From positions 1 through 64,000 of the forward strand of contig CAZFJK010000002.1 of the NCBI GenBank assembly GCA_964519225.1: DNA of 64,000 nt, given 5' to 3'. Positions 18,001 through 21,000 of this stretch are shown here, in pieces (position 1 is the stretch's first letter; each line of letters opens with the position of its first letter). This stretch comes from an uncultured Methanosarcinales archaeon (GTDB taxonomy: Archaea > Nanobdellota > Nanobdellia > Woesearchaeales > B54-G15). A program made the position numbers.

Positions 18001-21000
18001 AAGAAAACATGTTGATGAAGCAGTAAAAAACATGGTTGAGGAAGGAAAAGCAGAAATTATTCCAGGTGTTATTTTTATAGACGAATGCAGTTTGCTTGAC
18101 ATAGAAACCTTTGCATTTCTTAACAGAGCAATGGAACAAGAACTGGCACCGATTATAATTTTTGCAACAAACAGAGGTATGGCAAAAATAAGAGGAACGG
18201 ATTATAAAGCAGCCCATGCAATGCCGATCGATTTGTTGGATAGGCTTCTGATTATTAATACCAGAAAATACAATGCTGAGGAAATTAAAGAAATCCTGAA
18301 GGTAAGAAGCAAGGTAGAAAAAATCGAATTAAGCAAAGAGGCATTGGATTTGCTTGTAGAAATCGGTAGTAAAACAAGCTTAAGGTATGCTGTTCAGCTC
18401 ATAGCTCCTGCTTCGATGGTAATGCAGGAAGAAGGTAAGAAGCAGATTGAAAAGCGACATATCGAAAAAGCCAGAAAACTCTTTGCTGATGTAAAGCGAA
18501 GCGTAAGATATTTGAAGCAACAAGAAAAAGAATTCTTGGAGTATTAAGGGTTCAAAAACGTTTAAATACTTCTTTTTATTCTTGTTTTTTTGATGAATAA
18601 GAAAGGCATCTCTGCACTGCTTGCAACATTGCTTTTATTAGGCGTTGCAGTTGGCCTTGGTGTGCTTGTAATGAGCTGGGGCAGAGCAATTATTGAAGGT
18701 AATGCTCAATGCAGCGTAAAAAGCGGGTTAAAGATAATTGAACTTGATGGCAAACCTCAAATATGCTATAGTAAAGGAGTGAATGGATTTGTTAGAGTTA
18801 TGGTTGAAAACGGTCCGAATATAGATATTGAAGGCCTAATTTTTAGAATCATCGGAACCAAGGATGTTTATACAACAGAAATACCAACAAAGATAAGACG
18901 CGGACATGCTTTAATGCCGATAATTCCTTATGATTACGATCAATTCGGTGAAATTATTGAAGTTAAGATTACGCCGAGAATAAAGGTTTATGGTGATGAA
19001 ACAGCAATCTGTCCTGAGCAGGCTATAGTACTGACTTCTTTAGAGGAATGCTGAAATGGTTGAGATTGAGATTGACTGGACTAAAAGCGTTGGAGAGAAT
19101 GCTTCTATTTATTTTGAAAGAGCTAAGAAATTAAAAAAGAAGCTTGAGGGTGCAAAACAAGCTCTTGCTGAAGCAAAAGAAAAGCTGAAGAAGCTCGAAG
19201 AAGAATTCGCAAAGAAAATTGAAAAGGAAAGAAAAGAAAAGAGAGCAAAAAAGGAAAAAAAGAAAGAATGGTATGAAAAGTTTAGATGGTTTTTTAGTTC
19301 TAAAGGATTTTTGTGTATTGGCGGGAGGGATGCAACGACAAACGAGATTGTGATTAAAAAATATACAGAAAAAGACGATATAGTGTTTCATGCCGATTTC
19401 AGCGGAGCTCCTTTTTTTGTTGTAAAAAGCCAAGGAAAGAAAATCGACAAACAAAGCATAGAAGAATGCGGTATTGCTGCTGGCAGCTTCTCAAAAGCCT
19501 GGCGTTTGGGTTTAAGCTATGTTGATGTTTATTTTGTTAAGCCAGAACAGGTTAGCAAAAAAGCAAAGGCAGGAGAATATCTTACGAAAGGTGCATTTAT
19601 GATTTACGGAAAGAAAAACCATATGAAAGTGGAATTGAAACTTGCTGTTGGTTGTGCTGATGGAAAAGTTATTTCTGGCCCTGTTGAAGCTGTTGCAAAG
19701 CAAACAAAAAATTATGCTGTAATAATTCCGGGAAATGAAAAGCCGAGCTCTGTTGCAAAGGAGATAAAGAAAAAACTTAAATGCGATGCTGATCTGGATG
19801 AGATTATCAGAATGCTGCCTCCAGGAGAAAGCAAGATTGTTAAATTTGTGAAGGAAAAATGATACCTTTGATGGAACTGAAAAGAAAGGCTAAAGGATTA
19901 AAGCCAACAGTTCAGATTGGAAAATATGGTTTAACTGATGAAGTACTGAAAGAGATCAATAAACAACTTAAAGATAAGAAATTGATTAAAATTCGATTAC
20001 AGCGCGCATTTGTTCTTAGCAAGAGTAGGAAGGATGTTGCAGAGCAAATAGCCAGTAAAACCGGTGCTAGGATAGTGAGTGTTGTTGGTAATACGATCTC
20101 TTTGTTTAAAGAATGAGCTTTTAGGATAAAATGGGCTTTAAAGAAATACCGCCGGTTCCTTCTGTTGGGGATTTGATCGATATTGCCTTTAAAAGAGCAA
20201 GCAAAAGGGCAAAGCAGTTAAAGGCAAGGAAAAAGAAAGGCAGGGTAAAAGAAAGCGAGTTGCTCAGAATAGGAATAGTAAGGGATATGCTGATCAGTAG
20301 GCTCGATAAAATTGTTGCATCTTTTCCTACTGTTGATGAGCTTAATGTGTTCTATAAGAAGCTGGTGAGCGAATTTATCGGCATTGTTGAACTGAAAAAA
20401 TCTCTTGCTGCTGTGAGATGGGCAAGAGTGAAGATAAACAATTTGTTTAAGCAAGTCAATGCTCAGATGAAAAAAGTTGATGAAAGCNNNNNNNNNNNNN
20501 NNNNNNNNNNNNNNNNNNNNNNNNNNNNNNNNNNNNNNNNNNNNNNNNNNNNNNNNNNNNNNNNNNNNNNNNNNNNNNNNNNNNNNNACTTTGAATAGAC
20601 CGAATAAGATGAATGATATTGAAAAGTATGCTTGGTTAGCTATGAAGTATGTTGCTGATAGGATCATTTATATTTTTGATCCGACAGAGCCCTATCCTTT
20701 TGAAGAACAAGTTCGGCTTTATAAGCGAATAGCTGAACTTGAAAAAGGAATGCTTGTTTACGTTAGCAAATGCGACTTGATTAGCGAGGAAAAAAGAAAG
20801 GAGTTCTTTAAAGCGATTGAAGAAGCATTGGGAAGAGTTCGCGAAATCTATTTTGAAGAAAAGTTGAAAAAATTGATAAGCGCTTTAAGTGAAGTAAAAA
20901 AATAATCTGGTTTAAGTTTTCCAAGCTTGGTTGTTTTTCTTTTTATGATTGCTGATTTTACTTTTGCTTTTCTTGCTGCAATGATATCATTTTTGTGATC

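Follow-up and report, generated by a model that had tools for sequence, protein, structure and literature searches.

In archaea, humans, yeast and Bacillus subtilis the ribosome quality-control factor RqcH/NEMF/Rqc2 is a single chain (NF041120, 9gy4, 8aaf, and 7aqc and 7as8, respectively), whereas the locus described here encodes one of two. The 64-kb stretch of the genome G000 that was analysed (the window) carries a gene for the C-terminal half, and raises the question of whether this is part of a genuine two-chain RqcH, and how such a protein might act. Codes beginning with G, L and f are our handles for relatives' genomes, loci and families.

The ORF has its own ATG, and because an in-frame stop lies at 19041, four codons upstream, no N-terminal part is in frame with it. 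Pfam matched it to positions 369-423 of 456 of NFACT_N and to positions 1-112 of NFACT-R_1. The alignments given in a preliminary description of this DNA, to human NEMF from residue 461 (residues 461-645, E 1.9e-31) and to yeast Rqc2 from residue 505 (505-692, E 2.9e-12), were reproduced. On the NCBIfam profile RqcH_arch (NF041120) the ORF spans positions 380-645 and the N-half of a relative spans 1-376; the two halves score 334.9 and 305.1 bits, both below the 400-bit cut-off. An AlphaFold model of the isolated C-chain of a relative (G139; mean pLDDT 88.9) matched NEMF (E 3.7e-15) and CCDC25 (E 3e-6), with residues 1-11 lacking secondary structure. Most of the nearest named records bear Woesearchaeota or Nanoarchaeota in their titles, and many bear uncultured Methanosarcinales. 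No RNA record was listed for the window, which does not bear on expression. The ORF is confirmed as a stand-alone C-half of archaeal RqcH/NEMF, and is filed as a split variant, short of the NF041120 cut-off for the canonical single-polypeptide equivalog. Its features are collected in Table 1.

Table 1. Coordinates of the C-half gene, its parts and its immediate neighbours in the window
Feature	Position	Strand	Basis or remark
RqcH C-chain gene	19056..19862	+	268 aa; Pfam, NCBIfam, NEMF/Rqc2 alignments
Last M-domain beta-strand, residues 1-11 (putative partner of the N-chain terminal strand)	19056..19088	+	Start at profile position 391-394
Second coiled-coil helix, approximately residues 12-63	19089..19244	+	Helix 12-63 in G139 C-chain model; NEMF alignment from 461
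NFACT-R domain with Asp108 and His112 (codon 19389-19391), D-x-W/V-x-H motif	19278..19610	+	Pfam, alignments
NFACT-C region, bounds approximate	19632..19841	+	RqcH_arch coverage to position 645; alpha/beta elements 193-256 in model
yhbY (CRM domain) gene	19859..20116	+	4-nt overlap with rqcH-C stop
Pilin-like gene upstream, outside RqcH	18590..19054	+	Ends 1 nt before C-half ATG

The presence of yhbY beside the C-half is a relic of the gene order rqcH-C, yhbY, rpS19e. The product of the gene upstream gave no Pfam match and a weak match to the UpsA pilin (E 4e-4). Two genes upstream of the C-half lies a gene for a TIP49/RuvBL-type AAA+ ATPase (17189-18547, + strand; PF06068, E 4e-141), itself preceded by a DUF123/GIY-YIG gene, and yhbY is followed by a NOG1 GTPase gene (20131-20905, + strand) that is crossed by a run of N and is intact at the same place in G114. 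Elsewhere in the window, a 685-aa ORF (23576-26554, - strand), near a CooC-like ATPase and judged by eye from sequence, encodes a putative CooS-type carbon-monoxide dehydrogenase, which is unusual in a reduced genome. A 338-aa ORF without a Pfam or NCBIfam match (15167-16183, - strand) lies just downstream of tRNA-Arg(GCG) (16217-16288, - strand).

The start of the N-half had been assigned to the end of another contig, at C3:52-2 (- strand), and this was borne out: 15 of the 17 codons there match the N-half start of G114, a genome of the same genus. The match is the best among 356 contig-end frames (E 0.0046), and loses significance when all 39,461 frames are considered (E 0.51). The gene context, described as the same in both genomes, is shared only in part, as two extra ORFs separate the kinase gene from the N-half in G114. 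No further pieces of the N-half were found in the G000 assembly. Contigs from public runs, one of which may be the source sample, continue beyond the end of C3, and the cut in the N-half is therefore an assembly break.

The range of the split was followed in 151 genomes of the window's order, including the unpublished G105 and G124, on which no claim depends. NFACT-R scored over the cut-off in 147 of these, in frames of at most 479 aa and full length in none, and a separate N-half was found in 135. Neither half was found in two genomes, two contained the N-half only, and 14, G000 among them, contained the C-half only. An assembly gap explains G000 and may explain others of the C-only genomes; alternatively, some of them may truly have lost the N-half. 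The claim that the split is order-wide, with no full-length gene, is thus upheld, and the count of 151 genomes replaces the 41 on which it was first based. Where both halves are on one contig (seven genomes) they are 97-418 kb apart, and the distances of 418 kb and 180 kb reported earlier were found again, in G015 and G023. Since the halves are usually this far apart, co-transcription is absent in the window's order.

Several candidate exceptions were rejected. Long frames around C-halves (479, 417 and 362 aa) lack N-half homology and have a Met where C-halves usually start; a C-half frame of 439 aa likewise lacks that homology. N frames given as 588 and 484 aa proved to be 348 and 380 aa long once excised. 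We left out of the N-half count weak PF05833 matches (positions 150-240, in frames of 530-1085 aa), which are short cross-hits of HhH-like type. Of the 80 named records, one (L281) holds an intact frame of 604 aa, and the other 79 are C-halves that begin at the same site. Although the N-half of G000 is truncated by a contig end, these record counts refute an assembly artefact or a decaying pseudogene, a reading to which we give virtually no weight: the same start recurs in the 79 records and in single-contig genomes, and the key residues are invariant.

The cut was mapped on a 669-position profile built from 111 intact proteins. The N-halves end at approximately 389-392 on an alternating hydrophobic strand, and the C-halves begin at 391-396 with Met and the next strand; in intact proteins a two-residue turn joins the two strands. 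The cut therefore coincides with the turn that links the M domain's final two strands, and no sequence is lost or added. This mapping agrees with the earlier proposal of a split inside the M domain that places the two coiled-coil helices on different chains. In NEMF, the M domain comprises three short helices together with two strands, and the first coiled-coil helix lies on uL11, while W375 sits at the sarcin-ricin loop and the second helix at H43/H44 (Shao 2015, PMC4321881). With the cut inside this domain, contact with the stalk base would therefore be shared by two chains.

Both halves retain the residues expected of a working protein at near-complete frequency. In 35 N-halves of the window's order, R98, E116, G121 and D/E97 are each present in 35/35; these counts come from relatives, as the 17 codons of G000 do not reach R98, E116 and G121. 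The Trp aligned with W375 of NEMF is kept in 21/35. Among 44 C-halves, H501 is present in all and D497 in 43, and the DWH-type motif in the NFACT-R domain of the window gene has both residues (D108 and H112). The His is found at the aligned position in NEMF, is absent from yeast Rqc2, and is invariant in intact RqcH (32/32). From the alignment, we take the kept residues to correspond to the DR, EIM and DWH motifs of B. subtilis RqcH. In that protein, which carries all three motifs, DWH is needed for 50S binding (10.1101/2020.09.03.281279).

These observations describe a clean two-gene RqcH, fixed across the order and with its functional residues kept. Since the cut lies in a turn and the residues that bind tRNA and ribosome are kept in both halves, reassembly is the most likely outcome, and the two chains probably join through the M sheet and the coiled coil to work in ribosome quality control. 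Against this stand the distance between the halves, the 14 C-only genomes compared with two N-only ones, the Trp kept in only 21/35 N-halves, and the 17 N codons that are all G000 has assembled. The N-chain would consist of NFACT-N, HhH, the first coiled-coil helix and the M helices and strands, and the C-chain of the last M strand, the second helix, NFACT-R and NFACT-C; on joining, the M sheet would be completed and the two helices paired. If the pair behaves as its bacterial and eukaryotic homologues do, it would sit on the split 50S subunit with peptidyl-tRNA, placing NFACT-R at the A-site finger, the CC-M tip at the stalk base and NFACT-N on the tRNA anticodon, and would add an untemplated C-terminal tail, marking the chain for degradation. 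A literature search of titles and abstract openings yielded no demonstration of tailing by archaeal RqcH.

Two other fates of a two-chain protein were weighed. The halves might be joined covalently, by protein trans-splicing or by RNA joining, as the exact junction and the occurrence of inteins elsewhere in these genomes (in aRF1) could suggest, but the N-halves stop after a strand and the C-halves open with Met before the next. Because these ends abut the strand turn there is no room for intein fragments, none were found at the N/C junction, and we regard covalent joining as highly improbable. The reassembled protein might also serve without tailing in another RNA role, for example in rRNA modification or large-subunit maturation. 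An RNA-modifying NFACT-N was proposed by Burroughs and Aravind (PMC4075521), and the C-half is adjoined by yhbY here and by rpS19e and rpL31e in relatives. Such a role nevertheless seems improbable when set against the invariant tRNA-anticodon-binding residues, the RQC-complex structures that are the best fold matches of the C-chain model, and the loss of Pelota along with the N-half in a few genomes. Pelota is present in 2/2 split genomes (G000 and G174) and missing in 4/4 without an N-half (G191, G339, G307 and G217, a small sample), where the Pelota search gave only an aRF1 cross-hit. The aRF1 gene of G000, outside the window at C1:394-3048 (- strand), is itself an 885-aa frame in which an intein-like insert follows immediately upon the GGQ motif; the eRF1_2 match is divided in the same way in aRF1 frames of 882 aa in G268 and G256 and of 506 aa in G297.

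The first listing of such a split was reportedly in the Nanoarchaeum equitans genome paper of 2003. Table 1 of Podar 2013 (PMC3655853) gives as split a 'Predicted RNA-binding protein', NEQ438-506 and Nst176-251, the two pairs sharing one site, and Nst1_176 and Nst1_251 both belong to arCOG01695, which equals COG1293. NEQ438 (332 aa) is included in the NFACT list of Burroughs and Aravind (2014, PMC4075521), from which NEQ506 is absent and whose main text does not use the word 'split'. Supplement 3 of a 2024 study (PMC11237513) records NEMF/RQC2 (K24971, arCOG01695; cluster 73) as a 'fission' with non-syntenic pairs in 57 assemblies, among them Micrarchaeota (16), Woesearchaeota (12), Altiarchaeales (8), Nanoarchaeales (2) and Nanoarchaeota (2); in its main text NFACT and Rqc never occur. 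The RqcH split is therefore already known, under an old name in the one and as a table row in the other. The caveat in the preliminary description that the split nanoarchaeal gene may be of this family was thus well founded, given arCOG01695 and the place of NEQ438 in the NFACT family.

The pairs NEQ438-506 and Nst176-251 resemble the present one in family and in being two unlinked genes, and NEQ438 has the size of the N-halves here. Family and length suggest that NEQ438/506 may be cut at the identical site; in another order of the class the cut falls at the same profile position in 21/21 genomes. The table of Podar 2013 does not name the split gene as Rqc2/RqcH or map its site, and treats it as specific to Nanoarchaeota. 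In our tree test a single clade of all split rows was rejected, a result compatible with either a single split followed by re-fusions or two separate splits. The cluster 73 row, for its part, is without site, fixation, cysS linkage, re-fusion or orphan form. Compared with the single-chain proteins, NFACT-N, HhH, the coiled coil-M, NFACT-R and NFACT-C are all encoded across the two genes in relatives, with only the C-chain and 17 N codons assembled in G000 itself.

In other orders the gene occurs in several states. It is intact in the order of G239 (40 genomes; 36/37 matches in frames of 562-612 aa, the remaining one near a contig start) and in those of G198 (9/9) and G195 (2/2). In the order of G176 the C frames are cut at the same site in 21/21, with N-halves in 5/5 tested. 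The order of G174 has NFACT-R over the cut-off in 25 of 101 genomes, of which 14 are split, four intact (family f153) and seven orphan, and none in 76. Nine of the 14 split genomes carry N-half, cysS and C-half on one strand, and two more have cysS just before the C-half. Both junctions overlap by 4 nt in G174, G305 and G299 (three of six measured), and rpS19e, often with PDCD5 and rpL31e, lies downstream of N-cysS-C. The cysS gene may be the cause of the split or a later arrival. Its insertion as a universal cause is not supported: there is no cysS beside 30 N-half loci of the window's order or beside 79/80 named C-half loci; in G000 it is on contig C35.

Two loci with further interruptions were seen. 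In G238 (L087:4460-6745, - strand) the cysS between the RqcH halves consists of two ORFs, of 240 and 251 aa, that flank a 270-aa ORF with a Phage_endo_I match (E 4.5e-8); this is either a gene fractured by a gap that holds an endonuclease, or an intron. In G289 (L179:1215-2261, + strand) the N-half is broken by one stop between profile positions 141 and 143, which reflects either a sequencing error or an additional split.

In a tree built from concatenated N and C columns (31 rows, including eight hand-picked genomes of the window's order), the intact protein P0181 was sister to the split G174 and G305 (100/99), and f153 fell inside the split clade (95/88). A single clade of the eight split rows of G174's order was rejected (p-AU 0.009, for a group defined once a first tree had been seen). 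Four transitions between the split and intact states were needed on a 24-row tree, and monophyly of all 12 split rows was again rejected. Intact genes thus nest among split ones, which points to interconversion of the two states at this site. No cysS accompanies L281, which belongs to the P0181 lineage and, like the G174 N-half, has a pilin-like gene upstream. We read the nested intact genes as probable re-fusions after loss of cysS, although the proteins show the exact ancestral turn spacing and no scar; repeated fission, or gene transfer, could also have produced them.

In the order of G212, which is probably Pacearchaeales, a short NFACT-R gene is present in 101/101 genomes, 125-231 aa long except for two of 277-279 aa. 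The N-half profile gave a real match in 1/101 (G368); this N-half was likely misbinned or transferred, because it groups inside the window's order at 98, and it was still counted. The orphan loci occupy the position of the C-half, with cysS upstream in 16/25 and rpS19e downstream in 22/25, and the orphans of this order together with f139 and G256 make up a single clade within the cysS-linked group (100, in a quick tree on 176 columns). By tree and gene order they are derivatives of the RqcH C-half. In each of the 28 orphan genes examined, the M strand and second helix are missing and the gene opens at NFACT-R. That the helix disappears along with the N-half is the strongest indication here that the second helix may bind the N-chain.

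Some orphans have acquired other segments. A Nudix hydrolase is fused to the orphan NFACT-R in G159 (L056:1666-2496, - strand), with a frame of equal size in G401, and in family f165 (L131:1363-2049 and L149:1366-2058) the orphan opens with a zinc-ribbon-like segment with two CxxC pairs. In family f139 (L055:1585-2304, + strand; six genomes) NFACT-R lies behind an RNase H-like domain. This domain compares with the middle domain of eRF1 at Z 8.0 (rmsd 2.8, 98 aligned) and with aRF1 at Z 7.2, tied with ParM at Z 8.2, and has a GG loop without a canonical GGQ, so that the likeness to a release-factor middle domain is suggestive only. A Pfam search with the f139 N-terminal domain was empty, its own profile found neither the aRF1 of G000 nor intact RqcH, and Atlas yielded nothing beyond leads towards NFACT_N that scored below 0.9. 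The idea that f139 genomes lack aRF1 was rejected, as aRF1 is present in 4/4 others of the family.

We searched for Pth2 (PF01981) in 100 genomes picked by state and completeness, 40 of which belong to the 101 of G212's order. Pth2 was found in 1/47 orphan genomes (G349, a weaker match) and in 51/53 others: 5/5 split genomes of the window's order, 13/14 and 3/3 split elsewhere, 4/4 of f153, 4/4 other intact and 22/23 showing no RqcH part. Bacterial Pth was found in none of five orphan genomes tested. Thus RqcH can be lost with Pth2 kept, or Pth2 lost with NFACT-R kept, and both were lacking in only 1/23.

This pattern bears on a further reading of the window gene, that the C-chain acts mainly alone, as a Jlp2-like release factor using the NFACT-R His, and meets the N-chain only transiently. 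Yeast Jlp2 is a stand-alone NFACT-R protein that releases peptides via His44, and Rqc2 lacks this His (10.1101/2025.09.04.673968); the position of His44 was mapped from the His-x-Asp spacing in that preprint and from the absence in yeast Rqc2. The window gene resembles Jlp2 and human CCDC25 in its NFACT-R domain with the His at this position, shared with NEMF, and in the structural match of the C-chain model to CCDC25. The His is also kept in the orphan derivatives (28/28 in G212's order, and 6/6 and 1/1 in others), whose genomes lack Pth2 in all but 1/47. The window gene differs from stand-alone Jlp2/CCDC25 in keeping the M strand, the long second helix and NFACT-C, an architecture reduced to that of Jlp2 only in the orphans, and Pth2 is present in G000 and in 4/4 other genomes of its order. 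As the His is invariant in intact RqcH too, and DWH is needed for 50S binding in B. subtilis, the His alone is no proof of catalysis. We therefore consider a mainly solitary C-chain unlikely, though it is the leading alternative, and prefer reassembly of the two chains for the window's order.

For the orphans the same counts hint that the stub took over the job of peptidyl-tRNA hydrolase, in the manner of Jlp2. RqcH fission may have freed the NFACT-R half, which in the order of G212, f139 and f156 would have lost partner and helix and replaced Pth2; we consider this a serious possibility, at somewhat less than even odds. The pattern may be a single evolutionary event, since the orphans form one clade, and it was seen in incomplete and reduced genomes; the invariant His of intact RqcH and the ribosome-binding role of the motif in B. 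subtilis weigh against a hydrolase here as well. The titles and abstract openings searched included none on NEQ438/NEQ506, split RqcH or orphan NFACT-R, and the supplement of PMC6514570 gave no match for NFACT, DUF814, Pacearchae or Woesearchae. The cysS-interrupted layout, the nested intact genes and the orphan/Pth2 pattern, for which no report was found in the literature searched, carry most interest.

Because neither half passes the profile cut-off, RqcH is missed by annotation in these archaea. The split marks a site at which RqcH/NEMF tolerates a chain break, and the natural half-proteins offer a way to study tRNA delivery apart from ribosome anchoring. The Jlp2 preprint (10.1101/2025.09.04.673968) left open whether other NFACT-R domains that bear the His act as release factors, and natural NFACT-R proteins of 125-230 aa, in genomes where no Pth2 (or Pth, in 5/5 tested) was found, make the question directly testable. 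If the orphans are indeed hydrolases, they would be a prokaryotic, independently evolved Jlp2, and the NFACT-R His of archaeal RqcH could release the tailed chain.
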